A DNA stretch of 64,000 nucleotides, from positions 1-64,000 of the IMG/VR virus record IMGVR_UViG_3300032268_001078. One strand, given 5' to 3'. Numbering within the stretch: the first letter of the stretch is position 1; each line of letters starts with the position of its first letter. This DNA is from a virus. The notes under the pieces were generated by a model. The model worked only from the letters and a program-made list of their open reading frames with translations. It did no database searches and was not told where the DNA came from. Shown here piece by piece: positions 144 to 50,870 of the stretch. The translations under genes and the position numbers were made by a program.

Positions 144-278
144 TTAAAGGTCCCAATCATAAATAATTTGTCCATTTTGATTTATTTTAAGTTTTTTATT
201 TGTTTTTAGTTTTATTAAATACTCAATTATGAGTTTTGATTCAACAGAAATTATACATTCTATATTATAAAGTGTCAT
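144..278 (-). CDS. microprotein, 44 aa
   Basis: MTLYNIEC...IIYDWDL*. Confidence 0.6.
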   Translation of the reverse strand: MTLYNIECIISVESKLIIEYLIKLKTNKKLKINQNGQIIYDWDL

Positions 279-394
279 AAATCTAAATATTTCATTAATC
301 GATAATACTTCTCACTATTGAATTCTTTACGTAGTCCAATAATAACACCTACTTCATGTTTCCACAACATAAATTCCATATTAATTGGTTTCAT
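275..394 (-). CDS. YLDL microprotein, 39 aa
   Basis: MKPINMEF...RLMKYLDL*. Confidence 0.7.
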   Translation of the reverse strand: MKPINMEFMLWKHEVGVIIGLRKEFNSEKYYRLMKYLDL

Positions 395-540
395 AAGTCT
401 AATAAATTAATTATTTCATTTACCATTGCATCTGTGTATTTTTTGTTTTTAGCATAATTGAGTTTTACCCATAATGAATAACCCATTGAGTTGTGAGGTA
501 TTACTTGCATCCATCTTGCTTTAATTTCAGTTAACCACAT
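391..540 (-). CDS. YLDL-type microprotein, 49 aa
   Basis: MWLTEIKARW...IINLLDL*. Confidence 0.7.
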   Translation of the reverse strand: MWLTEIKARWMQVIPHNSMGYSLWVKLNYAKNKKYTDAMVNEIINLLDL

Positions 541-706
541 CTAAATCTAAAAACTTAAATAAATCTTCATTTATATTTTTTTCTATTTCATAAAACAAAT
601 CATTGTTATCAACATCCACATATAAAAAATACATTTCTATGTATAGATAATTAGCGTAGTCTTTAACAACATCGTCTATTGTCCATTCAATTACTCTTCT
701 TATCAT
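527..706 (-). CDS. YLDL-type microprotein, 59 aa
   Basis: MIRRVIEW...FKFLDLDVVN*. Confidence 0.7.
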   Translation of the reverse strand: MIRRVIEWTIDDVVKDYANYLYIEMYFLYVDVDNNDLFYEIEKNINEDLFKFLDLDVVN

Positions 707-879
707 ATGTTTAAATCTAAAAAATAATACAAATCTTCACTTTTATTTTTTGAATCTTTATTAAATAATCCACCCGTACTAACATCACCAAACCCATATC
801 TTAAATATACATTCATATAATCATAGTTTGCATAGTCGTGTATACTATCTTTCATACTCCATTTATAATTCCATTTCAT
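703..879 (-). CDS. YLDL-type microprotein, 58 aa
   Basis: MKWNYKWS...YYFLDLNI*. Confidence 0.7.
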   Translation of the reverse strand: MKWNYKWSMKDSIHDYANYDYMNVYLRYGFGDVSTGGLFNKDSKNKSEDLYYFLDLNI

Positions 880-1004
880 AAGTACAAATAATTTACTAAT
901 ACTTTTATTTTATGTTTAATTGGGTAATCAACAAAAAAATCATACATTACATATAACTCATATTTAGATTTAGTCATATCTTCTATTTGTTCTTTAGTCA
1001 TCAT
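876..1004 (-). CDS. YLDL-type microprotein, 42 aa
   Basis: MMTKEQIE...VLVNYLYL*. Confidence 0.7.
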   Translation of the reverse strand: MMTKEQIEDMTKSKYELYVMYDFFVDYPIKHKIKVLVNYLYL

Positions 1005-1141
1005 AAGTACAAATAATTACACATTACAATATTTCTTACTAAATAAATTCCATGATAATAATTATCATTAAAATGGCTATAAATACCTATTGGTGGGTAT
1101 TTTACATAAGCCATATCATATACTTTACTGTATTCCATCAT
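1001..1141 (-). CDS. YLDL-type microprotein, 46 aa
   Basis: MMEYSKVY...VMCNYLYL*. Confidence 0.7.
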   Translation of the reverse strand: MMEYSKVYDMAYVKYPPIGIYSHFNDNYYHGIYLVRNIVMCNYLYL

Positions 1142-1275
1142 AAGTCTAAATAAGTTATTATTATGTTTGTAAATATTCCATGATGTTTTTTGTATTTGTT
1201 TTTATAGTAAATTAAATTACCTATATTATAATCCCATTTACTCATTAAATTTATATTATTCTTTTTATTCATCAT
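1138..1275 (-). CDS. YLDL microprotein, 45 aa
   Basis: MMNKKNNI...IIITYLDL*. Confidence 0.7.
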   Translation of the reverse strand: MMNKKNNINLMSKWDYNIGNLIYYKNKYKKHHGIFTNIIITYLDL

Positions 1276-1421
1276 ATATCTAAATAATCTAATAAATCAT
1301 CAATGTATTGTGGTTTATTTATAATTGTTTTTTTATAACGTATAATATGTTGTATACTATTTATAACATAATGTGTTTTATAATCATAAAGTCTTCTTAA
1401 CATTAAATCTCGATTTGTCAT
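1272..1421 (-). CDS. YLDL-type microprotein, 49 aa
   Basis: MTNRDLML...DLLDYLDI*. Confidence 0.7.
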   Translation of the reverse strand: MTNRDLMLRRLYDYKTHYVINSIQHIIRYKKTIINKPQYIDDLLDYLDI

Positions 1422-1549
1422 AAGTCTAAATAATATACTGTTGAGTATATATAGTCGGTGTAATATTTACGTGTTTTTTGAATGTGAATTAATACACTAC
1501 AATAAAACTCATCATATGCTATATCTTCTATCTGTAATTCATTCATCAT
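1418..1549 (-). CDS. YLDL microprotein, 43 aa
   Basis: MMNELQIE...STVYYLDL*. Confidence 0.7.
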   Translation of the reverse strand: MMNELQIEDIAYDEFYCSVLIHIQKTRKYYTDYIYSTVYYLDL

Positions 1550-1677
1550 AAGTCTAAATAATCTATTAATTCAATATGTTTTAACCGAATATCAAACCAA
1601 TTCATAACATTAATAGTTGTTGTAAAACCATATTTGTGATGTGCCATACTACTTATTTTAAATGGAACAATTTTCAT
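1546..1677 (-). CDS. YLDL microprotein, 43 aa
   Basis: MKIVPFKI...ELIDYLDL*. Confidence 0.7.
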   Translation of the reverse strand: MKIVPFKISSMAHHKYGFTTTINVMNWFDIRLKHIELIDYLDL

Positions 1678-1802
1678 AAGTCTAAATAATTTGAAAAGTA
1701 TGTTTGTATTTCATAATAATTTGGTTCTTTTGATATTTTCAATAATATTTTTACATTATACTCATAACTTGATATAATATATATTGAATATTTTCCTGTC
1801 AT
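1674..1802 (-). CDS. YLDL microprotein, 42 aa
   Basis: MTGKYSIY...YFSNYLDL*. Confidence 0.7.
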   Translation of the reverse strand: MTGKYSIYIISSYEYNVKILLKISKEPNYYEIQTYFSNYLDL

Positions 1803-1960
1803 ATGTCTAAATATACTGATAAATTATGAATAAGCCATTCTACATTTTGACCACCTAAATTAAATGCTTGAGCATGATCAGTATAATGACGATACACACT
1901 ACTTAAAAGTAATGCAGGTCTGTGTCTGTTTGCTATTGATGTTAATTTATTTTCATTCAT
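1799..1960 (-). CDS. YLDL-type microprotein, 53 aa
   Basis: MNENKLTS...NLSVYLDI*. Confidence 0.7.
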   Translation of the reverse strand: MNENKLTSIANRHRPALLLSSVYRHYTDHAQAFNLGGQNVEWLIHNLSVYLDI

Positions 1961-2088
1961 AAGTCTAAATAATCTATTAATCTATAATATGAATAATCAA
2001 ATCCCTCACTAAAATCTCTACACATTCCAGCAATACTATTCATTTTATACTCATATTTTGCCATATCCGATACTGTAATGCGATTCAT
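1957..2088 (-). CDS. YLDL microprotein, 43 aa
   Basis: MNRITVSD...RLIDYLDL*. Confidence 0.7.
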   Translation of the reverse strand: MNRITVSDMAKYEYKMNSIAGMCRDFSEGFDYSYYRLIDYLDL

Positions 2089-2252
2089 TATATGTCTAAA
2101 TATATTATCATATCACTTACAAAATATTTACGACTTTTATTATAAGTGGGATATTCTTTGTCTTGAAAAGAACTAAATACTTTGTTTATTACAAACACAC
2201 TGTGTTTGTGTGTACCAATGTATTCTATTCTTTCAATTATATTAAATTTCAT
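2088..2252 (-). CDS. YLDL-type microprotein, 54 aa
   Basis: MKFNIIER...MIIYLDI*. Confidence 0.7.
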   Translation of the reverse strand: MKFNIIERIEYIGTHKHSVFVINKVFSSFQDKEYPTYNKSRKYFVSDMIIYLDI

Positions 2253-2359
2253 ATATCAAACCACTCACCTAAACTATTTCTATTAAAATACTTAAATTTC
2301 AAAAAACCATGTGATATATACTCCATGTTTTTGTATGTTGCTATTTGAAACCAACTCAT
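2249..2359 (-). CDS. microprotein, 36 aa
   Basis: MSWFQIAT...GEWFDI*; TAATG overlap with the upstream gene. Confidence 0.6.
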   Translation of the reverse strand: MSWFQIATYKNMEYISHGFLKFKYFNRNSLGEWFDI

Positions 2360-2874: not shown

Positions 2875-2903
2875 ATTACACAAAAACTTTTATTAAATCC
2901 CCC
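2875..2903 (-). promoter_or_regulatory. class I phage promoter
   Basis: GGGGG-N17-GTGTAAT overlapping the sigma gene stop; drives array A. Confidence 0.75.
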
Positions 2904-3411
2904 TTAATAAGAGTTGTTTTTTTAAAAATTTTCTTGCTTTAGCTAATTGTGAACGCGATGTTCCTTCAGTTATATTTAACTCTTTACTAATTAATTTATG
3001 TGATTTTCCTTCAAATACATATGAAGTAAATACTGTTTTATATCCACTAGGTAGTTTTTCTATTTCATTAACAATGTCTTGAAATTCAAGATTATTAAAT
3101 CCGTAGTCGACACATCCAAATATATCTCTATAATCAGTTATGTCGACTTCCGAATTTGATTTGTTGGTTCGAATTTTATTTATGCTATAATTTTTAACTA
3201 TAGAATATAAGTATGAATGAATACTATTATTTGTAATATTAGAACAATTGTTAAATAAAGACATAAACGATTCAACCAACACATCTTCTGTATCTTCAAT
3301 GTTTTTGGTATATCTAATACTCAACTTATACATTGATTCGTAGTAGGTTTTATATACTTGAGCTTGTGCTCGCGAATCGTTTTTAATTAAGTCTTTAATT
3401 AGTTGTTCCAT
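2893..3411 (-). CDS. ECF-type sigma-70 factor (Bacteroidota-like)
   Basis: Region 2 (AQAQVY...EDTEDVLVESF) and region 4 (KLPSGYKTVF...EGKSHKLISKELNITEGTSRSQLAKARK). Confidence 0.9.
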   Translation of the reverse strand: MEQLIKDLIKNDSRAQAQVYKTYYESMYKLSIRYTKNIEDTEDVLVESFMSLFNNCSNITNNSIHSYLYSIVKNYSINKIRTNKSNSEVDITDYRDIFGCVDYGFNNLEFQDIVNEIEKLPSGYKTVFTSYVFEGKSHKLISKELNITEGTSRSQLAKARKFLKKQLLLRGI

Positions 3412-3413
3412 AG

Positions 3414-3671
3414 TTAAAATGTGTGTGTTATTCCTATAGTTTTAACTGTTTGTACAGTATCAACATTTACTGATCTAAATTGACGTTTTTTCATATCATA
3501 AACAGTAATGAGTCCTTTTTCAGCAGCATCATATGGTAAACCTACTCCTGTTACACCTTTTTTAACACCACGTCTAGCATTCATTACTCTAACTGTTCCA
3601 TCTTTTTTAGTAAATGTAACTGTGAAGATTTTATTCCCCATTGCTTTAATAATTTTTTCTCTTTTATTCAT
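3414..3671 (-). CDS. WYL_2/Sm-like SH3-barrel phage protein
   Basis: FTVTFTKKDGTVRVMNAR...VYDM....FRS pattern. Confidence 0.55.
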   Translation of the reverse strand: MNKREKIIKAMGNKIFTVTFTKKDGTVRVMNARRGVKKGVTGVGLPYDAAEKGLITVYDMKKRQFRSVNVDTVQTVKTIGITHTF

Positions 3672-4328: not shown

Positions 4329-5081
4329 TTACTGTTTCATAATCTCAATTGCTTTAACTTTTATTGTTCTAACAGACTCTTTAGACATTTTCATTTTTTC
4401 TGCTACTTCTTTTAGTTCTAATTGTTCACAGTCCAACCCAAATAACATATTGACTACTTTCATTTGTTTTTCATCTAATTTAGATGTAAGTCGTTTCATT
4501 ATTAGTTTTTGTTCAAGTTGGTCTTCAGGACTGTCTGCATTTGAATTTTTAACTATATCAATCAACATTCCATCATCACCTATTTTATCATATAAATCAT
4601 ATGTTGATGGTAAACTAGCATACTCATCATCTATATCTATATTTTTTTCATTTTGTAATTTTATTTGTCTGTGTAATTCTTTAGACACATTTTCAGGTAA
4701 TCGAATTAATCTTGAATTAGTGTAAATATTACTGTATAATTCAGCCATCACAAGCCATTTAGCATGTGTTATAAATTTAATATCACGTGTAAAATCAAAT
4801 GAATTCATTGCTTTTACTAGTCCTAAATTACCACTTGAAATCAAGTCTTCTAATTCAATTCCTAATCCAACAAATTTATGTGCTTGTTGAATTACATATC
4901 GTAAGTGACCTTCAATCAATTCATTTTTTAATTTTAATTTTTCACTTTCACTTACATTAGGATCTAATATTAATTTTTTAATTTGATTTTCACGTTTTAA
5001 ATCTACAATTGATGTTTCTCTTACATCTCGTGAATAATTTTGATAACTTTTACTTGTACTAAATATTTTCTTTCCTGCCAT
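4329..5081 (-). CDS. RpoD/RpoS-family sigma-70 factor
   Basis: LIEGHLRYVI, DLISSGNLGLVKAM..FD....KFITHAKW, LIRLP, and a region 4 HTH (LKEVAEKMKMSKESVRTIK). Confidence 0.9.
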   Translation of the reverse strand: MAGKKIFSTSKSYQNYSRDVRETSIVDLKRENQIKKLILDPNVSESEKLKLKNELIEGHLRYVIQQAHKFVGLGIELEDLISSGNLGLVKAMNSFDFTRDIKFITHAKWLVMAELYSNIYTNSRLIRLPENVSKELHRQIKLQNEKNIDIDDEYASLPSTYDLYDKIGDDGMLIDIVKNSNADSPEDQLEQKLIMKRLTSKLDEKQMKVVNMLFGLDCEQLELKEVAEKMKMSKESVRTIKVKAIEIMKQ

Positions 5082-7954: not shown

Positions 7955-8319
7955 TTGTTACCTCCGTATTTTTTTTCGTAGTAATCTTGCCCATCATTAA
8001 ATTCTTGATAGTGTTCTTGCCCATCATCCAAATCATTACCCGTTTGGATCGAACAATAGTAGTTGTAATCACCATCATCAAACGCTTTGGCAATTGTATT
8101 CCTTTCAATTTCTTCTAATGAATTTTTATTCTCCCATAGCCATTCAGTAAAACCGCTTCTTCCGCTTTTTGTGAATGCTTCGTAAATTAACCCAACTGCT
8201 GTTTTTTGTTTACTGTTTGTCATTCTTTTATCGTTTAAAAATTTGGTTAGTGTTTCACTTGTTTCATTGCGTAATGCTTTATCAAGTTTGCTTTCAAGTT
8301 TGTTTAAGTCAAGGCTCAT
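7951..8319 (-). CDS. hypothetical phage protein
   Basis: 122 aa, ends YGGNK*. Confidence 0.7.
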   Translation of the reverse strand: MSLDLNKLESKLDKALRNETSETLTKFLNDKRMTNSKQKTAVGLIYEAFTKSGRSGFTEWLWENKNSLEEIERNTIAKAFDDGDYNYYCSIQTGNDLDDGQEHYQEFNDGQDYYEKKYGGNK

Positions 8320-8573
8320 TGTGTATCTCCTTGTATTTTATCACGCATCCATTTTGCACCGTCAATGAATTGTTCATCACAAAAATCATCAAATGCCTTT
8401 TTGCCTATCTCCTCATCACTTGGTAGTTCAATGTTTTTAGTCGGTTTGAGAGATGCAATAAATTCTATCATTTCTATCATTTCTTTATTAAATGGTGCTC
8501 TATCTTCTTTGTGACATACTCCAAAACCAAAAGCAATTGCTTTAATTAAGTCTTCTTCTGTGTATAGTTTCAT
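8316..8573 (-). CDS. hypothetical phage protein (near-identical copy at 19431-19673)
   Basis: MKLYTEEDLIKAIAFGFGVCHKEDRAPFN... in both copies. Confidence 0.75.
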   Translation of the reverse strand: MKLYTEEDLIKAIAFGFGVCHKEDRAPFNKEMIEMIEFIASLKPTKNIELPSDEEIGKKAFDDFCDEQFIDGAKWMRDKIQGDTQ

Positions 8574-16211: not shown

Positions 16212-16748
16212 TTATGGTTGTACTTGGTATGATGTACCATATGGTGTAGGTACATTGTGTATAAAACTATTAGTAATATTAGTAATAGTACCTGTTGTAG
16301 CATATATATTTGAACCAACTGCAATACTATTACTAGTTCCTGCCATTAAGTTAATTTTATGTTCTTTTATTTTAAAACACTTAACATTTTTAGGATGAAT
16401 TACTTGTTTAATAGTTAAGTTATTGCTTGATAGTGCGAGTGTTTTTTTTTGTCTATTCCAATCTCTAATCTTCCTTTTGTCGTCGTGTTTTTCTTTAACA
16501 TTATTCCATATTAGTCTTGTGATTACATGTAAATCAGCTTTATCTATATAACCACTTATGAAATCAGTAACAGAATAGTATATACCTGCTTCATTTGTTT
16601 TTTTATTAAAAACTCTAATGTTAACACTTCCCATATCCCAGTTTGTTTGAGGTGTAATGCGCCAATAATAATCGTAACGTTGTCTAATTTTTTTCAATAG
16701 TTTTACTTTCATCTTATATAATATAATAAAGTTTAAATTAAAAGCCAA
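16212..16748 (-). CDS. hypothetical protein
   Basis: 178 aa ORF; true start may be an internal MKVKLLKK. Confidence 0.55.
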   Translation of the reverse strand: MAFNLNFIILYKMKVKLLKKIRQRYDYYWRITPQTNWDMGSVNIRVFNKKTNEAGIYYSVTDFISGYIDKADLHVITRLIWNNVKEKHDDKRKIRDWNRQKKTLALSSNNLTIKQVIHPKNVKCFKIKEHKINLMAGTSNSIAVGSNIYATTGTITNITNSFIHNVPTPYGTSYQVQP

Positions 16749-17889
16749 TCTTTTTAGTAGAAGGAGCTAAATACTCTTCTTCGTCAATGTTGTAGATTTG
16801 AGCTAATGTTAATGGTTTATCTGTAGTTGATTTACTTCCCAATTTACTTAACAGTTTATTGCTGTGTTCAATGTCTAAGGCATCAAACTTATGTTCAGCA
16901 ATCAATCTACCTTTACGTAGTAATGCTGAGTCGATTTTGTTTCGGTTCATATTGAAACTACAAATGATTTGGATTTTCATAATGTCACCCATAATACCAT
17001 CAGTCATATTCAAAATATTACTTACACCAACTGCACTTCCACCATTGCCTCTTTCACTTACTACTCGTTCTGCGTCTTCAATGACTAATACACTGTTACT
17101 GTTTTGAGCTAAAAACGGAATAAATTCAGGTGATGTAATAGCTTCAGTCAAAAATGGTGGAACAAAAATAACATTCTTGTCTTTGATTTGACTTACTAGC
17201 CACTTGATATATGTTGTTTTACCTGTTCCCGGTTCACCGTGTAATAATACTAAACCTCTGTTATTGTTTTTATTTAGTTCTTCAACAATCTTTTCACTTA
17301 CAGGAACAAACTCACTACCATAATTTGATTCTAGTTCAAGTTCGGGATTATTAATGTCAAATTCTTCTAAGTCAAAACCATTACGATCTTGTGACACTAA
17401 GTAAATTTGAGACATAGTAACATCTTCATTTTTGTATTCATATTGATTCAACGATTCCATCAATTCAAATACTTCACTTTCATTACTACTGTCATATGTA
17501 ACCATAATACCTACTGAACCTAAAATTTTAGGATTTTCAAGAATTTCATCAATTTTATCACTACTTATGTTTCCTTTTCCTTTAGGCCATTGCACTTCAG
17601 TATTAGTACTTAATGTTAAACAAATTGCTCCTTCATTTTGAAACTTAATAAAGTGTTTTTCACGAACACTTAATTTTTTATCACTGTCTATTCTGTGTGA
17701 TTGAGTAACTAATTCATAGTCCTTTTCAAATATTTCAAGTATTTTAGTGTCATATGTTAAACTTGACTTAAATGTATGTGGAACAACTCCAAATGTCATT
17801 TGAATTAAGTGGTCCGGTTTAAAATTACCTCCATCTAAAACACCGTCTGTGTTGTGTTTAATAATTTCTTTTATATTTTCTAATTTCAT
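16738..17889 (-). CDS. AAA+ ATPase (BCS1/FtsH-type AAA domain)
   Basis: GLVLLHGEPGTGKT, LVIEDAE, ILNMTDG, IDSALLRKGRL. Confidence 0.9.
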   Translation of the reverse strand: MKLENIKEIIKHNTDGVLDGGNFKPDHLIQMTFGVVPHTFKSSLTYDTKILEIFEKDYELVTQSHRIDSDKKLSVREKHFIKFQNEGAICLTLSTNTEVQWPKGKGNISSDKIDEILENPKILGSVGIMVTYDSSNESEVFELMESLNQYEYKNEDVTMSQIYLVSQDRNGFDLEEFDINNPELELESNYGSEFVPVSEKIVEELNKNNNRGLVLLHGEPGTGKTTYIKWLVSQIKDKNVIFVPPFLTEAITSPEFIPFLAQNSNSVLVIEDAERVVSERGNGGSAVGVSNILNMTDGIMGDIMKIQIICSFNMNRNKIDSALLRKGRLIAEHKFDALDIEHSNKLLSKLGSKSTTDKPLTLAQIYNIDEEEYLAPSTKKIGF

Positions 17890-17900
17890 ATTTTTTGTTT

Positions 17901-18068
17901 TTAATAAAGTTCATAGTAATTTAATAACATTCTAAATGTTGATTCATCTATCTTCGTTTTTTTAGCAGTATCTATAAACTCAATAATTCGACCTATAGGG
18001 CGGATATAAGCATCGTTACTATAATTTTTTATATCATGAATGAATTCTTTAATATCTTTTTCTACCAT
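17901..18068 (-). CDS. YYEL microprotein, 55 aa
   Basis: MVEKDIKE...LLNYYELY*. Confidence 0.7.
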   Translation of the reverse strand: MVEKDIKEFIHDIKNYSNDAYIRPIGRIIEFIDTAKKTKIDESTFRMLLNYYELY

Positions 18069-18073
18069 ATTTT

Positions 18074-18244
18074 TTAAAGTTCATAATAATGAAGTATTTC
18101 CTCTAATTCAATGATTTTGGTGGATTGTTGTTGGTATTTACTAATTTTGTTTATATTAAAAATAATACTACGTACATTACTAATATACGTGCCATTAGTA
18201 TAATACCTCATATCTGTACATTTTTGGTAAAAATTATAGTTCAT
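18074..18244 (-). CDS. YYEL microprotein, 56 aa
   Basis: MNYNFYQK...ILHYYEL*. Confidence 0.7.
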   Translation of the reverse strand: MNYNFYQKCTDMRYYTNGTYISNVRSIIFNINKISKYQQQSTKIIELEEILHYYEL

Positions 18245-18392
18245 AATAGTCTAATATCCAATCATAATTTATTTGTGGTGAGTCGCTATTTTTGATAGCA
18301 TCTATTGATTCAATAATATTATTTATATGTTCGATGTAAATATACCTGTTGTATTTTACTATTTGTTGTATTTGTACTTCAATATAGTTCAT
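18234..18392 (-). CDS. YYEL microprotein, 52 aa
   Basis: MNYIEVQI...ILDYYEL*. Confidence 0.7.
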   Translation of the reverse strand: MNYIEVQIQQIVKYNRYIYIEHINNIIESIDAIKNSDSPQINYDWILDYYEL

Positions 18393-18531
18393 AATAATCT
18401 AATAAATCATCAACAGCATCCTTATCTTTGTCTTGTTTAATATCATTTATTAAATCAATAACATTATGTCTAAATTTGATATAAACATCATTGTTGTATT
18501 CTAATATATCTAATATTTCATATATAGTCAT
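18379..18531 (-). CDS. YYEL microprotein, 50 aa
   Basis: MTIYEILD...LLDYYELY*. Confidence 0.7.
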   Translation of the reverse strand: MTIYEILDILEYNNDVYIKFRHNVIDLINDIKQDKDKDAVDDLLDYYELY

Positions 18532-18674
18532 AATACTAATCTATTTGATAATAGAGTTAAATAAAATCTATAACCACGAACTACATCAGATGGAGTGAAA
18601 TTTTTTAGATGTTCTACATGATCATTTTGATGTAATCTTACTATTCTTAACATCATACGGTATTCTCTAGTCAT
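18528..18674 (-). CDS. microprotein, 48 aa
   Basis: MTREYRMMLRI...YLTLLSNRLVL*; paralog of the next ORF. Confidence 0.65.
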   Translation of the reverse strand: MTREYRMMLRIVRLHQNDHVEHLKNFTPSDVVRGYRFYLTLLSNRLVL

Positions 18675-18823
18675 AATTGTAACCTTAATACTAATCCGTT
18701 TAAATAAGTTTTTAAATCACAATCTAAATCATATGGATAATAGTTTATCATATAATTCAAGTAATAGTTATTGTCTTGATAACAATTTAATATTCTTAAC
18801 ATTGAATAATAGTCTCTAGTCAT
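18671..18823 (-). CDS. microprotein, 50 aa
   Basis: MTRDYYSMLRI...YLNGLVLRLQL*. Confidence 0.65.
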   Translation of the reverse strand: MTRDYYSMLRILNCYQDNNYYLNYMINYYPYDLDCDLKTYLNGLVLRLQL

Positions 18824-18957
18824 ATTCTCATCCAAATTTTTATCCAAGTGTTTATATCTGACGATTTACGATTGAAAGGACATATTATTTCATGTGAACG
18901 TTCTACAAGTTTGTTTACTGTACATTTGTGAATATATGATTCCATCCTATATTTCAT
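18820..18957 (-). CDS. microprotein, 45 aa
   Basis: MKYRMESY...KIWMRI*. Confidence 0.6.
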   Translation of the reverse strand: MKYRMESYIHKCTVNKLVERSHEIICPFNRKSSDINTWIKIWMRI

Positions 18958-19127
18958 AATATAAATCTACTTATTAATGCGGTATTCATTTGACCACTGA
19001 GTGTTATACCATTTGTTAATGCGTTTCTCCACATAACAATTTCTATAATATTCTTATATCCTATTCCATAAGTAGAACAACATTTCATTTTAATCATATT
19101 ATGATATTTTAAGTTGTAGTCTGTCAT
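18954..19127 (-). CDS. microprotein, 57 aa
   Basis: MTDYNLKY...LISRFIL*. Confidence 0.6.
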   Translation of the reverse strand: MTDYNLKYHNMIKMKCCSTYGIGYKNIIEIVMWRNALTNGITLSGQMNTALISRFIL

Positions 19128-19291
19128 TATAGTTCCATTACATCACGTAAACTCGCATTAGCACTATTTGACATAATAATAAATCTTCTATTATCTATAA
19201 TATTTCTAACTCTCATCATTCTAAAATGATTTGCTTGAAATGAAAAACTAGCCAACCTTACTATATAAAGTGTCGTATTATGTTTACCCAT
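19127..19291 (-). CDS. microprotein, 54 aa
   Basis: MGKHNTTL...RDVMEL*. Confidence 0.6.
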   Translation of the reverse strand: MGKHNTTLYIVRLASFSFQANHFRMMRVRNIIDNRRFIIMSNSANASLRDVMEL

Positions 19292-19434
19292 TATTTTACC
19301 ACAAACACTCTTAATCTAAATAATAAATGGTCTTTAACATTAAACATACTAATATTTGGATTTACTAAATAAATATAATATTCAGTAAAATCTGTATATG
19401 CCATTATTCTAGCATTAAAACTATTCAGCATCAT
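19291..19434 (-). CDS. microprotein, 47 aa
   Basis: MMLNSFNA...FRLRVFVVK*. Confidence 0.55.
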   Translation of the reverse strand: MMLNSFNARIMAYTDFTEYYIYLVNPNISMFNVKDHLLFRLRVFVVK

Positions 19435-19673
19435 CTCCTTTGTATTTTATCACGCATCCATTTTGCACCGTCAATAAATTGTCCATCACAAAAATCATCA
19501 AATGCCTTTTTACCTATCTCCTCATCACTTGGTAGTTCGATAAGGGTAGTCGGTTCGAGAGATGCAATAAATTCTATCATTTCTATATTGAATGGTGCTC
19601 TATCTTCTTTGTGACAGACCCCAAATCCAAAAGCAATTGCTTTAATTAAATCTTCTTCTGTGTATAGTTTCAT
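19431..19673 (-). CDS. hypothetical protein (duplicate of 8316-8573)
   Basis: Near-identical nucleotide and protein sequence. Confidence 0.75.
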   Translation of the reverse strand: MKLYTEEDLIKAIAFGFGVCHKEDRAPFNIEMIEFIASLEPTTLIELPSDEEIGKKAFDDFCDGQFIDGAKWMRDKIQRR

Positions 19674-19735
19674 AACTTTTATTTTTTTATCTTATAAAAT
19701 AAATATTATATTGGAGCGTCTAAGACGCTCCTTTT

Positions 19736-19981
19736 TTATTCAGCATCGTAAGGTATTAATAGTAAAGCAGCAATAGCAGCATTGTGTTTCATAATCTGTT
19801 TTTCTAACTCAGTTTTACGTTCGTCAGTAGTAGTGTCTTCTAACCATTCAATAGCTAATAAGCGTCTTGCATCTAACTCAATTTCAATTAAAACTAAGAT
19901 TTTAATAGTTAATTCATAGTCAGCATACTTTGCTGCTAATTCTTCTAATTCTGCGTCTGTTAAATCTCTTCTACCTGCCAT
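19736..19981 (-). CDS. hypothetical helical protein
   Basis: 81 aa ORF. Confidence 0.6.
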   Translation of the reverse strand: MAGRRDLTDAELEELAAKYADYELTIKILVLIEIELDARRLLAIEWLEDTTTDERKTELEKQIMKHNAAIAALLLIPYDAE

Positions 19982-19982
19982 A

Positions 19983-20258
19983 TTACAACTTAATTAAACC
20001 GTTAGACATAAGACCTTTATAAAAGTCCAAAATACTTCTCATTGTTTCAGTAGGCAATTCACTCAAATTACTTACACTACTATTAGCTAGTTGATCTAAA
20101 TAATCTAAAGTTTGTTTGTCACTAGTATCACAATTTACTAGCAATGCAATTCCTAAATTCACAGACGACTCATCTTTAGATGTAATCATACCTTTTAATG
20201 TTTCAAATGACTCCGCGTCTAATTGATGTACATTTTGATTTTTAACTAATTCTTCCAT
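19983..20258 (-). CDS. hypothetical protein; stand-alone copy of a domain of 9037-10047
   Basis: LDAESFETLKGMITSKDESSVNLGIALLVN. Confidence 0.7.
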   Translation of the reverse strand: MEELVKNQNVHQLDAESFETLKGMITSKDESSVNLGIALLVNCDTSDKQTLDYLDQLANSSVSNLSELPTETMRSILDFYKGLMSNGLIKL

Positions 20259-20274
20259 AACTTTTATTTTATAT

Positions 20275-20303
20275 ATTATAATAATTTTCTTTTTTAAAAC
20301 CCT
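20275..20303 (-). promoter_or_regulatory. class I promoter variant (AGGG-N18-TTATAAT)
   Basis: Same architecture with a different -10 element; also at 28667-28695. Confidence 0.55.
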
Positions 20304-20311
20304 TTTTATAC

Positions 20312-20539
20312 TTATTTCACAAAATCTTTTATAAAATTCCCCTCTTTTCTTAATTCTCTTAAATCTTCTAAATCAAACCTACTTACTAGTTCATCTAACT
20401 GATATCTTTTTTCAAAACATGTAGGTTTACTAATAATTTTATCAGTAGTAATATAGTATTCTAATACAGCACTACAAACACCACAATACCATTTACTTAC
20501 GTGGTATCCTATTATTTCATCTTTTGAAAAACACGACAT
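20312..20539 (-). CDS. array C small protein (LDE-x5-DLE-x-L)
   Basis: YQLDELVSRFDLEDL. Confidence 0.65.
   Translation of the reverse strand: MSCFSKDEIIGYHVSKWYCGVCSAVLEYYITTDKIISKPTCFEKRYQLDELVSRFDLEDLRELRKEGNFIKDFVK
20314..20342 (-). promoter_or_regulatory. class I promoter variant
   Basis: GGGG-N18-GTGAAAT. Confidence 0.6.
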
Positions 20540-20544
20540 ATTAT

Positions 20545-20573
20545 ATTACACAAAACCTTTTTTTTAAAACCCT
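20545..20573 (-). promoter_or_regulatory. class I phage promoter
   Basis: AGGG-N18-GTGTAAT. Confidence 0.7.
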
Positions 20574-20574
20574 T

Positions 20575-20778
20575 TTATCTCATTTTAAATAAATTTTCTA
20601 AATCCATAGAACAAATTACTTCATCTAACCAATACATACAAGGATCATTTTTAAAATCAACAATATCATTTTTAATAGTGTAAAAAATATCAAAATCAAT
20701 ATATTCCTTTTCATCAAGATAAATATACCATTTGTCTCTATAGTATTCCATCATTTCTTCTTTAGTGTATGCTGCCAT
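20575..20778 (-). CDS. array C small protein
   Basis: CMYWLDEVICSMDLENL. Confidence 0.7.
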   Translation of the reverse strand: MAAYTKEEMMEYYRDKWYIYLDEKEYIDFDIFYTIKNDIVDFKNDPCMYWLDEVICSMDLENLFKMR

Positions 20779-20941
20779 TTTCTAATTCCTCTAAATCTAA
20801 ATAAATACACATTTCATCTAACCAAAAATTACATCTATCATCTAAAAAACTATTTATGTCTTCTGTTAATTTTAAAATATCATTGTATTTATCAGTTGCT
20901 TGATAATCAATTATCGTTTTTTTAATATTGGATATCATCAT
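20762..20941 (-). CDS. array C microprotein, 59 aa (paralog of 20575-20778)
   Basis: MMISNIKK...CNFWLDEMCIYLDLEELENGSIH*. Confidence 0.7.
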   Translation of the reverse strand: MMISNIKKTIIDYQATDKYNDILKLTEDINSFLDDRCNFWLDEMCIYLDLEELENGSIH

Positions 20942-21114
20942 AATAAATTGTCTAAGTCTAAGTCTCTAACTGCTGAATTAAGTGCGAATTCGTTCATTGA
21001 GTAACTGTATCTTGGATGATGAATTTTATACATAAACCAAATTATTTGTCCAATATAATGATCATTACCTGCGACTTGACTCATAATAATTATTGCCTTA
21101 TTATTATCTTCCAT
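20938..21114 (-). CDS. array C microprotein, 58 aa
   Basis: MEDNNKAI...VRDLDLDNLL*. Confidence 0.65.
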   Translation of the reverse strand: MEDNNKAIIIMSQVAGNDHYIGQIIWFMYKIHHPRYSYSMNEFALNSAVRDLDLDNLL

Positions 21115-21280
21115 TTATGTATATAGGCGTTTTAATCTCATCTAAGCCAAAATAGTTTAAAAACATAGGTGATCTGTATCTTGATTTGTTCCACATATCT
21201 ACTACTGATAGTATTTCTTTTATATTGTATCCTCTTCTTGAATAAAACTCTATAAATGATGTTATTTCAAAATTTTTCAT
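21104..21280 (-). CDS. array C microprotein, 58 aa
   Basis: MKNFEITS...NYFGLDEIKTPIYINGR*. Confidence 0.6.
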   Translation of the reverse strand: MKNFEITSFIEFYSRRGYNIKEILSVVDMWNKSRYRSPMFLNYFGLDEIKTPIYINGR

Positions 21281-21281
21281 C

Positions 21282-21461
21282 TTAATTTTTATACTTTCCT
21301 ATTCTTACCTCATCTTCAAATTCTTCTAAGTCTAAATATTCTTCCACCATATCCACATAACTCTCAACATCTAAATAAAGTCTACGATATTTTAGTACTT
21401 TTTGCATATTATATGCAAAATGTGCATGGTCTTTAATTAAAAATTCTCTAAGTACTTTCAT
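21282..21461 (-). CDS. array C microprotein, 59 aa
   Basis: MKVLREFL...EEYLDLEEFEDEVRIGKYKN*. Confidence 0.65.
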   Translation of the reverse strand: MKVLREFLIKDHAHFAYNMQKVLKYRRLYLDVESYVDMVEEYLDLEEFEDEVRIGKYKN

Positions 21462-21649
21462 AATAGTTTATCTAAATCTAAATAGGACGATGCTCTACGT
21501 TGAAATGTTTTTATTGTATCTGTACTACACGAAGTAGGAGTTGATTGTTTGTAAACATCTAATAACCACAGTATAAAATACTTATGGTCTTTCACTGTGT
21601 CTTCCATACGCATTTTACGTATACCTAAATCTATTGGTTTTTGTCTCAT
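21458..21649 (-). CDS. array C small protein
   Basis: ...SSYLDLDKLL*. Confidence 0.65.
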   Translation of the reverse strand: MRQKPIDLGIRKMRMEDTVKDHKYFILWLLDVYKQSTPTSCSTDTIKTFQRRASSYLDLDKLL

Positions 21650-21843
21650 AGTGGTTCTAAGTCTAACATAGCTTCACATCTATTTATGTACTTCAATGTG
21701 GTTACAATAGTACTTTCTCCTTTAGAAAACTGTATACCTCTCACAAGTAAAAGAAAATATTTTACATAATTACCATTTATTGTTTGACCATCTTGTAGTC
21801 TAACCATATTTCCAATCAACTCAGTTTTTTCGATGTACATCAT
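21646..21843 (-). CDS. array C small protein
   Basis: ...EAMLDLEPL*. Confidence 0.65.
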   Translation of the reverse strand: MMYIEKTELIGNMVRLQDGQTINGNYVKYFLLLVRGIQFSKGESTIVTTLKYINRCEAMLDLEPL

Positions 21844-21860
21844 TGAAATTTTATTTTATC

Positions 21861-22055
21861 TTATGCAAAATGTAAATCTAATTTATGATATGGATTAACG
21901 TGTCTAATAGCAACTCTATTAGGCATACTTAGTTTAGGTGAATTTTCTACTTTTATAACATAAAGTTCTTCATCCATTACTACTAAGTCTTTAATAGTAA
22001 ACAAATCAGTTACATATGTTTCTATAAAGTAGGGTTCGTATTCTCTTGGTTCCAT
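21861..22055 (-). CDS. hypothetical protein
   Basis: 64 aa ORF overlapping the end of the phosphoesterase gene. Confidence 0.45.
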   Translation of the reverse strand: MEPREYEPYFIETYVTDLFTIKDLVVMDEELYVIKVENSPKLSMPNRVAIRHVNPYHKLDLHFA

Positions 22056-22797: not shown

Positions 22798-23556
22798 TTA
22801 ACCTTTATTAATAATTTCTTTCAACTTAGCTTCAATAATGGCTTTGGCTTTTCTAACCCATTCTTGAGACTTTCCTAAGGCCGTTGCTATTTCTGAATTA
22901 GTTACTTTAACCTTTTGGTATCTTTCATCAGTCATAAATGTAAATACAGCACCTGCTAATTCTTTAATTTTTGGATCTTTGATGTCTCTAATATAACTTT
23001 TCATTTTATCTAAGTAAAACTTAGAGTCTTGTACATTACTTATATCAAATTCAGGTGTAGAAAAGTCTAAACTGGTATCTGCTACTGATTGGGCATCATC
23101 ATCATCTCCACCAGCTGGTTGGTTTATACTAGTAAATTTTTGTTTAACTTTACGTTCTTTCTTAGTTAAATTAGAAAGATGATTTCTCATTGCTCCTTGA
23201 ACGAAAGAATTAAATGTTGCTCTTCTATCATTGAAATCAAATCTATCAAACAATACATCTAAATATGCTAAACCTTCTTGAAATAAATCAGGTGCAGCAC
23301 TGTCAGCGCCTACATTACCAAATTGTTTTGCTAATGTCCAAACTGTTCTCCAACTAGCATTTTTGATTTTTTCTTTTACTTCGTCTTTTCTGTCTTCAGA
23401 CGCATCTGAATCTGTAAATTCATCTGCTAATGAGTCATACTCAGCTCTAGTAAGTGGGTTGTATTTTGGGTTACGAATATATTGATCAATTACTCTTAAT
23501 GATTCGTAGTCTTCATTTAATAATGATTCTAATAGTATAAATTTTAGAGATAACAT
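22798..23556 (-). CDS. divergent sigma-70-family factor with an N-terminal extension
   Basis: Region 2: DLFQEGL...DRFD.....FNSFVQGAMRNHLSN; region 4: TNSEIATALGKSQEWVRKAK. Confidence 0.75.
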   Translation of the reverse strand: MLSLKFILLESLLNEDYESLRVIDQYIRNPKYNPLTRAEYDSLADEFTDSDASEDRKDEVKEKIKNASWRTVWTLAKQFGNVGADSAAPDLFQEGLAYLDVLFDRFDFNDRRATFNSFVQGAMRNHLSNLTKKERKVKQKFTSINQPAGGDDDDAQSVADTSLDFSTPEFDISNVQDSKFYLDKMKSYIRDIKDPKIKELAGAVFTFMTDERYQKVKVTNSEIATALGKSQEWVRKAKAIIEAKLKEIINKG

Positions 23557-50111: not shown

Positions 50112-50870
50112 TTAGTCTATATCTAAATTTAAACTTAAATCGTTTGAAATATATCTCAAATCTTCTAATTTTGCTGATTTTACTCGTAATGCTTGTTGAA
50201 ATTTTCTTTTAATTCCACTCAACTGTTGTAAACGTTTCATTATTTTATCGTGGTTTTTACATAAGAAATCAATACAATCGTCTTTATGTTTTTTATTTTT
50301 CCTATAACTTTCATAAAATGCATAACGTACTTTATATGAAATTGTTTTAGATGGATGTTGAACATAAATAATATGAGGATCATCGTGTGATCTAAAATTA
50401 AGTGGATATAAATTTTCTTGTTTTGAATCAAAGTTATTATCATATTGTGAATTGAAAATATCAATATGAATTTTCAACTTATAATCATATAATCTAATTA
50501 AATTCAGTTTAAGTATATCTTTAGTTGGTATTTTAGCCATATCATCAACTGAAATAATTTCATCATCCGCATATACATCACATACTACTTCTAATTCAAA
50601 TAATGACTTCATAATGTCAAATTCTTCTTCAGTTAATGGTTCTGTTAAAGCAAAGTCTAAATCAGCACTTCTAGTTTTAAAGTCTAATTTAACTAAATCC
50701 AATGCGTGTAATGAAACTGAACCTGCTAATACTAATTTAGGACAAACACTAGTCATTGTAATAAGTCTATTATATAGATCTTCGTTATCAATAAATTGAT
50801 GCGTAGTTGCATAAGCACTTTGTGCTTTTTTTGAATATGATCTTAAATCATAATTAAATTTTTCTTCCAT
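50112..50870 (-). CDS. Pol-beta-superfamily nucleotidyltransferase
   Basis: LVLAGSVSL...SADLDFAL (GS + DxD), third Asp in HIDIF, KHKDD. Confidence 0.65.
   Translation of the reverse strand: MEEKFNYDLRSYSKKAQSAYATTHQFIDNEDLYNRLITMTSVCPKLVLAGSVSLHALDLVKLDFKTRSADLDFALTEPLTEEEFDIMKSLFELEVVCDVYADDEIISVDDMAKIPTKDILKLNLIRLYDYKLKIHIDIFNSQYDNNFDSKQENLYPLNFRSHDDPHIIYVQHPSKTISYKVRYAFYESYRKNKKHKDDCIDFLCKNHDKIMKRLQQLSGIKRKFQQALRVKSAKLEDLRYISNDLSLNLDID

Follow-up and report, generated by a model that had tools for sequence, protein, structure and literature searches.

The stretch of DNA analyzed here (the window) is the first 64,000 nucleotides of the 179,715-bp IMG/VR virus record IMGVR_UViG_3300032268_001078, and within it a run of ten very small genes at 17901-19434 ends with four paralogs whose proteins terminate in Tyr-Tyr-Glu-Leu (YYEL), with or without a further Tyr. 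On balance we favor the reading that this is a chained run of real, lineage-specific microgenes that turns over by whole units, that the tail is a docking peptide selected as protein, and that the AAA ATPase gene lying immediately downstream is a bystander. The same degree of confidence covers the setting, which would be an uncultured T4-like freshwater phage with the array in its variable (accessory) part.

Ten open reading frames (ORFs) of 45-57 amino acids tile 17901-19434 without gaps on the minus strand, which is the coding strand here and carries nearly all the genes of the phage record. They comprise four YYEL paralogs (g1 to g4), two paralogs beginning Met-Thr-Arg (MTR a and b) and four singletons (S1 to S4). 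Ten coupled ORFs of this size had been proposed in an original prediction from the sequence, and all ten are present on the minus strand where it placed them. They are listed below in downstream order, with their counterparts in L085, a syntenic relative at the end of a 42-kb IMG/VR contig. Identities are at the amino acid level, and dN/dS is the ratio of nonsynonymous to synonymous substitution rates.

19291..19434, minus strand: S1, singleton, 47 amino acids, leads the ten; overlaps the preceding 80-amino-acid gene by ATGA; L085 ortholog 3502-3642, 72% identity, dN/dS 0.91
19127..19291, minus strand: S2, singleton, 54 amino acids, C-terminus VMEL; L085 ortholog 3344-3505, 51% identity, one-codon in-frame indel, dN/dS 1.6
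18954..19127, minus strand: S3, singleton, 57 amino acids, C-terminus RFIL; L085 ortholog 3171-3344, 88% identity
18820..18957, minus strand: S4, singleton, 45 amino acids; L085 ortholog 3037-3174, 71% identity
18671..18823, minus strand: MTR paralog a, 50 amino acids; ATG at 18823; DNA repeat D2
18528..18674, minus strand: MTR paralog b, 48 amino acids; single MTR gene in L085; unit skipped exactly by a lake contig (run X10, joint 18511->18671)
18379..18531, minus strand: YYEL paralog g4, 50 amino acids, C-terminus DYYELY; ATG of g3 inside its tail, 14-nucleotide overlap
18234..18392, minus strand: YYEL paralog g3, 52 amino acids, C-terminus DYYEL; ATG of g2 inside its tail, 11-nucleotide overlap; structure modeled
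18074..18244, minus strand: YYEL paralog g2, 56 amino acids, C-terminus HYYEL; 5-nucleotide spacer to g1; L085 ortholog 93% identical
17901..18068, minus strand: YYEL paralog g1, 55 amino acids, C-terminus NYYELY; its spacer, start and opening codons recur at the ATPase gene; missing from L085 and one lake variant

For the ORF called at 18671-18847 from a TTG codon, the ATG at 18823 is more likely to be the true start because it creates an ATGA overlap and gives the MTR N-terminus shared with the paralog. L085 itself was located by a two-motif DNA pattern (95 matches, mostly due to chance) followed by a local hidden Markov model; searches of viral and metagenome contig sets for loci encoding the YYEL proteins gave no match. 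It contains intact counterparts of every ORF in the array except g1, at 51-96% amino acid identity, with 46% for MTR a when this is compared with the single MTR gene of L085, its nearest counterpart there. Orthologs of g1 exist elsewhere. All the length changes between the window and L085 are of whole codons, so that every indel is in frame. The value of dN/dS against L085 is 0.14-0.77 for the YYEL orthologs and MTR b, 1.04 for MTR a against the single MTR gene, and 0.6-1.6 for the four singletons, the last calculated from few substitutions. The flanking genes give 0.11-0.22 in three of four cases and 0.61 in the fourth (16212-16748). Array proteins are also predicted by public gene callers (P0001-P0005). 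Since the frames are intact in L085, the indels are in frame, and members occur on many independent metagenome contigs, we judge all ten ORFs to be real, fast-evolving genes.

The genes are chained end to end. Beginning with that between the 80-amino-acid gene and S1, the eleven junctions read ATGA, TAATG, TAATG, four successive ATGA, a 14-nucleotide overlap, an 11-nucleotide overlap, a 5-nucleotide spacer and, before the ATPase, an 11-nucleotide spacer. Nine of the eleven are overlaps of 1-14 nucleotides, and the remaining two are A-rich spacers. The arrangement resembles that of translationally coupled overlapping cistrons, in which the stop codon overlaps or abuts the next start on the same strand, and by this organization the array would belong among them. 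It differs from the usual case in that two of the overlaps (11-14 nucleotides) lie within a motif conserved for protein-level reasons. Here the original prediction had the ATG of the next ORF, beginning MN, supplied from within TAT-GAA, and this is indeed so at 18244 and 18392, where the ORFs begin MNY. The A and T of TAT and the G of GAA form the initiation codon, so that a single stretch specifies Y-E-L-stop in one frame and encodes M-N-Y in a second. By chance the word TAYTATGAACT would be expected 0.31 times, and four copies are present. Inspection of the junctions by eye reveals no Shine-Dalgarno sequence, save an AGGAG-like run just before the first junction (19434). No Rfam family was detected across 16500-20500, and shuffled sequences contain promoter-like sites at least as often as the region does.

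The four expected YYEL(Y) C-termini are found, as NYYELY, HYYEL, DYYEL and DYYELY, on proteins that are paralogs with pairwise identities of 33-42%. The two MTR ORFs, which had also been proposed to be paralogs, are 36% identical (E 6e-8), and DNA repeats support the paralogy both of g3 with g4 and of MTR a with MTR b. We have sought the level at which the tail is kept. The YEL sequence is invariant in array-terminal genes, where a spacer and an unrelated gene come next (the g1 group, and L085 2282-2452). The codons vary, with Leu encoded by CTA, CTT or TTA, Tyr by TAT or TAC and Asp by GAT or GAC, and some members have Phe in place of Tyr. The N-terminal MNY is itself variable; depending on the phage, g1 begins MVEK, MEEK or MNYNEK. 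In L085 the ATG lies within TAT-GAA at two junctions, and another (2748/2751) is a plain ATGA. Because YEL is kept without an overlap, its codons vary and MNY is dispensable, we take the YEL tail to be a feature selected at the protein level, and the embedded ATG would therefore ride on the tail. An MNY start is found in 20 of 39 family members, and the self-coupling junction would thus be old and have been copied together with the unit.

The YYEL family is tiny and lineage-specific. A word-indexed search found 22 proteins, and HMMER, run against all 1.84 billion cluster representatives, then gave 17 clusters (at 50% identity); the family stands at 39 distinct sequences. Nearly all the matches are 38-64 amino acids long and none is a convincing fused form, the sole long match (P0032, 636 amino acids) having eight short matching stretches and being taken as low complexity by the match pattern alone. 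In 38 of the 39 sequences [YF]YEL lies at the C-terminus with at most one further residue (Y, F or R). The exception is P0013, a g3-type protein on an 876-nucleotide ENA contig, whose stop codon has apparently been lost, so that the frame runs on for 18 residues into the region of the next gene. The four window members share the length range of the family, its N-terminal helix with a Y-x-N-D-x-Y-I stretch and its [YF]YEL end, and match its profile with E values of 1e-22 to 2e-26. Four orthologous groups recur among the public protein matches, several of which (P0006, P0011, P0012 and P0021 among them) are recorded on 171-188 kb contigs, and the order g4, g3, g2, g1 is kept in the window and L085, the latter having an extra paralog and lacking g1. 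Since the four groups recur in the same order, we take the paralogs to be old and to have been kept side by side, with occasional gain and loss. A Pfam search with the YYEL and MTR ORFs (six of the ten) returned only DUF3839, at E 0.041 and 13.8 bits and below the cut-off, a PHROGs search with all ten gave no family match (best rows E 0.24-0.59), and the ESM Atlas gave only a lead of 0.75, which was unusable. YYEL is an undescribed microprotein family inside an ordinary phage accessory-gene array.

An AlphaFold2 model of g3, made from a 22-row alignment, has a predicted local distance difference test score (pLDDT) of 75, with helices at residues 3-35 and 40-49 and the last three residues (YEL) non-helical. 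The conserved columns of the family are Y19, I27, L47, Y50, E51 and L52. Several known classes of short protein or C-terminal signal were considered and set aside. There is no Cys/Ser/Thr-rich core and no modifying enzyme nearby, as would be required of precursors of ribosomally synthesized and post-translationally modified peptides. The tail does not fit the L/I at P3 of the prohead-protease LxE site, and an analogy with KDEL of the endoplasmic reticulum or with PDZ ligands lacks a relevant compartment or partner. Nor do the tails have the Ala-Ala-type end of an ssrA-like ClpXP degron, ending instead in YEL, YELY or YELF.

Two further arrays are present in this genome, designated YLDL (window 144-2359) and LDLExL (20312-22055). 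When a matrix was made from the last seven residues of the YLDL tails, the YYEL tails ranked 3, 4, 8 and 17 out of 248 ORFs, and the MTR tails ranked 2 and 10. In the reverse direction, a matrix of YYEL tails placed YLDL genes at ranks 2, 3, 5 and 7. The common C-terminal pattern is [LI][LI][DN]Y[LY][DE][LI]. The bodies of the YYEL, YLDL and LDLExL proteins have no detectable homology (hhalign probability <1%; 0.7% for YYEL against YLDL). The suggestion that YYEL is a second family built on the logic of the first array is thus upheld for the tail, in both directions of comparison. The YYEL array is like the YLDL array in size class, chaining, and the pattern and register of the tail, and unlike it in forming four stable orthologous groups and not one hypervariable swarm. 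The top match of the YYEL tail matrix outside the family is an 809-amino-acid multi-domain protein (G000 145538-147967, L102) that ends KYEL, which may be chance (about 1 in 20 for this genome).

The content of the array varies by whole genes. Contigs assembled from lake metagenomes have joints that remove g1 (17901->18070, run X10), one MTR gene (18511->18671, run X10) and roughly g2 (18053->18233, at low depth); runs in which this DNA is a small share were used for contig joints only and not for habitat. There are two MTR genes in the window against one in L085. The LDLExL array likewise has about nine members in the window (20312-22055) and three in L085 (4203-4794), and a lake joint at 20764->21309 skips units. 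The hyperplastic regions of T4-type phages have small variable genes between core blocks, PeSL (promoter and stem-loop) cassettes, and whole-gene indels (PMC4122927), and the array is like these in being a cluster of small, phylogenetically variable genes lying between conserved core blocks and in that its content differs between close relatives through whole-gene indels. It is unlike the PeSL regions, where a composite early promoter and stem-loop separate the shuffled modules, in that neither element lies between its units, the stop of one unit overlapping the start of the next, and in that recombination seems to use the conserved coding junction itself. A PeSL-like element, a hairpin with a promoter-like stretch, flanks only the inserted 80-amino-acid gene at the head of the chain.

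19431..19673, minus strand: gene of 80 amino acids at the head of the chain; second copy of 8316-8573, 91% identical; absent at the corresponding place in L085
19713..19731, no strand assigned: G+C-rich hairpin followed by an AT-rich stretch with TATAAT, just upstream of the 80-amino-acid gene; the only hairpin of the region

The depth of contigs carrying the 80-amino-acid gene in lake metagenomes is far above that of its surroundings, and it has the appearance of a PeSL-type mobile cassette. The hairpin and TATAAT stretch are likely to mark a transcription-unit boundary.

We propose that the array grows and shrinks by tandem duplication and deletion of whole genes at the conserved junctions. 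The ATG inside TAT-GAA would be a by-product of the conserved junction, each copy carrying the start of the next gene, and such an embedded start would fit coupling of termination and reinitiation. The tail would be a hydrophobic-acidic peptide exposed at the C-terminus of a small helical hairpin, and through it the diversifying paralogs might all engage one common host or phage partner. Expression is probably early in infection, and the role may lie in host interaction.

The original prediction was that the array runs directly into an AAA ATPase gene, and so it does, with an 11-nucleotide spacer between.

16738..17889, minus strand: classical-clade AAA ATPase, 383 amino acids, with a BCS1-like core; outside the conserved context of the YYEL family

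The protein matches PF00004 above the cut-off (E 9.5e-10), as expected of a classical AAA protein, and contains the Walker A motif GEPGTGKT, the Walker B motif VIEDAE, an arginine-rich second region of homology (SALLRKGRL) and a BCS1-like SNILNMTDG. Its matches in the PDB are Afg2 (E 1e-11), Rpt subunits (Rpt3) and BCS1 chains (E 1e-5). The core motifs are like those of BCS1 and other classical AAA proteins (PF00004; PDB 6sh3, 7wd3). It is unlike BCS1 in that its one AAA module follows an N-terminal domain, about 190 amino acids long, without a match to any known family; BCS1_N is not among its Pfam matches, and BCS1 ranks below Afg2, so membership of the BCS1 subfamily is not indicated. It falls in PHROG 14322, which has no assigned function. 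Read by eye, the segment from GEPGTGKT to VIEDAE has no K-[YFW]-x-G aromatic pore-loop motif. Homologs number at least 2,670 proteins at E 1e-10, including those of jumbo phages PA5oct and XacN1; the breadth of the ATPase family is over 100-fold that of the YYEL family, which has about 40 proteins.

A search for synteny of the YYEL genes with the ATPase across relatives showed that the linkage is not conserved. In the closest relative, whose ATPase is 91% identical, the two are separated by four genes and about 3.3 kb, the order being YYEL array, genes of 164, 74 and 385 amino acids, an SGNH-type hydrolase and the ATPase. That order is read from L085 joined to L001 (IMG/VR 3300009180_000080 and _000041, from one metagenome), which overlap end to end by exactly 123 nucleotides (1-123 of each) and probably derive from a single phage genome, the break falling within the SGNH hydrolase gene that precedes its ATPase, in the stretch where gene order departs from that of the window. 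The hydrolase precedes the ATPase both in this relative and in relatives at 52-55% identity (L113-L117), and because it is found in both, the hydrolase-ATPase order is probably ancestral, the order in the window having probably arisen by a swap of the ATPase with the four-gene block. Among 80 metagenome loci with ATPase homologs there was no clear YYEL gene, the nearest being two marginal matches on the opposite strand near E 0.001, and in the 52 ATPase loci with at least 700 nucleotides of upstream sequence the neighbors are unrelated larger genes. PA5oct and XacN1 have no YYEL gene. Two loci with an ATPase 55% identical (L112, 1-815, and L111, 1-283) have an unrelated microgene array directly upstream, encoding proteins of 45-82 amino acids with tails YLFY, WMYE, WLFE and EFLFDKK and an internal EFLYD; EFLFD and EFLYD resemble the LDFLF and LDFLY of T4 clamp binding.

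The immediate juxtaposition of g1 and the ATPase appears to have a history of its own. DNA repeat D3 (17860-17907 and 18039-18086; 48 nucleotides, 71% identity) matches the upstream tail, spacer, ATG and first nine codons of g1 with the front of the ATPase gene. P0026, a g1-type protein from another sample, contains MKLENIKE, which is the ATPase N-terminus; P0010 and P0026 are placed on the same contig only by the equal nucleotide size of the contigs listed for them. Thus g1 looks like a chimera carrying the initiation region and first codons of the ATPase, a duplication scar. It could have arisen by tandem duplication between two breakpoints, one within a YYEL gene and a second a short way into the ATPase gene, and such a scar would explain the adjacency of g1 and the ATPase without a functional tie. 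The ATPase looks like a recent neighbor by rearrangement and not a partner, and adjacency to it should not be used as a ground for assigning YYEL function.

How, then, do other explanations fare? It is hardly credible that the ORFs are not genes but frames left open by chance in AT-rich DNA. The dN/dS values close to 1 in three singletons, the lack of an RNA run among those holding the region and the failure of Pfam and PHROGs to give a match above the curated cut-off or at a meaningful E (best E 0.04-0.6) would suit chance frames, but the frames stay open in a relative at 51-96% identity with in-frame indels only, the YYEL members are spread over many independent contigs, and the ORFs tile the very strand on which the genes of this genome lie. 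Conservation of the tail might alternatively have nothing to do with its residues, the DNA or RNA providing the following gene with its start codon and a landing site for ribosomes, or else acting as a recombination site. The ATG within TAT-GAA at two junctions in the window and two in L085, the 20 of 39 members that begin MNY, and unit-precise deletions that end at the repeated junction are all as this would require; invariance of YEL in terminal members before a spacer and an unrelated gene, synonymous variation of the codons, plain ATGA junctions such as L085 2748/2751, and the dispensability of MNY (g1 starting MVEK or MEEK) are not, and we consider it very unlikely. It is only somewhat unlikely that the tail has no dedicated partner and simply closes, by its hydrophobic residues, a tiny helical hairpin or else a homo- or hetero-oligomeric bundle. 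The likeness to other arrays would then be a common amphipathic-helix pattern. In the model, residues 40-49 are helical and pair with the long helix, which bears a heptad-like Tyr/Ile stripe, and the conserved columns fit such packing. Yet 38 of 39 sequences place the motif at most one residue from the C-terminus, the model leaves the final three residues non-helical and with lower pLDDT, and the identical seven-residue pattern recurs in the same register in a family without detectable homology.

Of the proposed role of the ATPase as cognate handler of the YYEL tails, whether unfoldase or release factor, little survives, and we regard recognition of the tails by the ATPase as quite unlikely. 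Classical AAA proteins can recognize terminal peptides, and the ATPase lies directly downstream both here and in the lake variant without g1. P0004 (g1 type) and the ATPase fragment P0044 both list a 2069-nucleotide contig, the equal figure being the sole basis for their co-residence, and the ATPase lineage of L112 and L111 is preceded by another, unrelated aromatic-tail array. Against this, four genes intervene in the closest relative, the 80 ATPase loci contain no clear YYEL match and 52 of them have unrelated larger neighbors upstream, at least 2,670 homologs face about 40 YYEL proteins, the adjacency of g1 is accounted for by a duplication scar, and no canonical aromatic pore loop was seen by eye between Walker A and Walker B. 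Some observations do weigh against the reading that we favor, a chained array with a docking tail and a bystander ATPase. The alternation hydrophobic-hydrophobic-x-hydrophobic-hydrophobic-x-hydrophobic is that of any amphipathic hairpin helix, and the tail could be purely structural. Foldseek searches of viral and PDB libraries gave no match below E 4. Three singletons have dN/dS near 1, on few substitutions, and no RNA run is present among the sequencing runs listed as holding the region. Finally, array and ATPase are adjacent here, and also in a lake variant that joins g2 directly to the ATPase (X10).

The tail pattern recalls a known class of docking peptide. In the T4 family a C-terminal epitope that binds the sliding clamp is common to gp43, gp55 and gp33, and is interchangeable among them (PMC2988020). 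The relevant C-termini are as follows.

T4 gp43: SLDFLFG
T4 gp55: SLDFLYEAND
RB69 gp43: LFDMFDF
YYEL family consensus: ILDYYEL
YLDL family consensus: LIDYLDL
Polymerase of this phage: VERFFSF

Both ILDYYEL and LIDYLDL match the residue classes of RB69 gp43 at seven of seven C-terminal positions, which is a resemblance of pattern only. As patterns, the YYEL and YLDL tails may therefore be described as hydrophobic and acidic C-terminal epitopes of the T4 clamp-ligand kind. The polymerase of this phage, unlike those of T4 and RB69, shares only the last four residue classes. It is conceivable, though distinctly doubtful, that at least three unrelated families (YLDL, with genes at 144-2252, LDLExL and YYEL; about 30 genes) carry one interchangeable docking peptide of the T4/RB69 gp43-gp55-gp33 clamp-binding class and plug into a single hub, the sliding clamp or another phage or host hub protein, their variable helices bringing activities or blocking competitors. 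We know of no precedent for some 30 clamp ligands in one genome. A gp45-type clamp gene was not found in the phage with PF02916 or PF09116. A weak PF02916 match at 77442-78149 looks like a glycosyltransferase and not a clamp. The 252-amino-acid protein at 50112-50870, near the clamp-loader genes, was considered as a candidate clamp and rejected, the motifs LAGS..SLH and R..DLDF suggesting, by motifs alone, a nucleotidyltransferase type; it has no Pfam or PHROG match and is conserved in relatives. Two family members (P0012 and P0017) carry the Joint Genome Institute name 'DNA polymerase elongation subunit (family B)', and these have no similarity to the polymerase of T4 or of this phage.

Phage genomes encode millions of small proteins, of which very few have a known mechanism (PMC11323111). 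The array offers a clean and testable case, in which a tiny family of four stable paralogs keeps an invariant three-residue ending and whole genes are gained or lost in natural variants. Should the tail be a docking peptide, one partner could serve about 30 genes of this phage, and the array would show phages diversifying effectors on a fixed anchor. If it is structural only, the array is ordinary accessory-gene turnover in T4-like phages.

The virus record is rated complete and has about 29% G+C. It encodes a gp43-type family B DNA polymerase together with clamp-loader subunits of gp44 and gp62 type. Sequencing runs with related DNA are labeled as lake, pond and river metagenomes, and a megablast search against isolated phages gave no match. 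The phage also has sigma-type genes in the window, one like an extracytoplasmic function factor (2893-3411), one sigma-70-like (4329-5081) and a third weakly sigma-like (22798-23556), and with sigma factors of its own its transcription program would therefore be unlike the gp55/gp33 scheme of T4.

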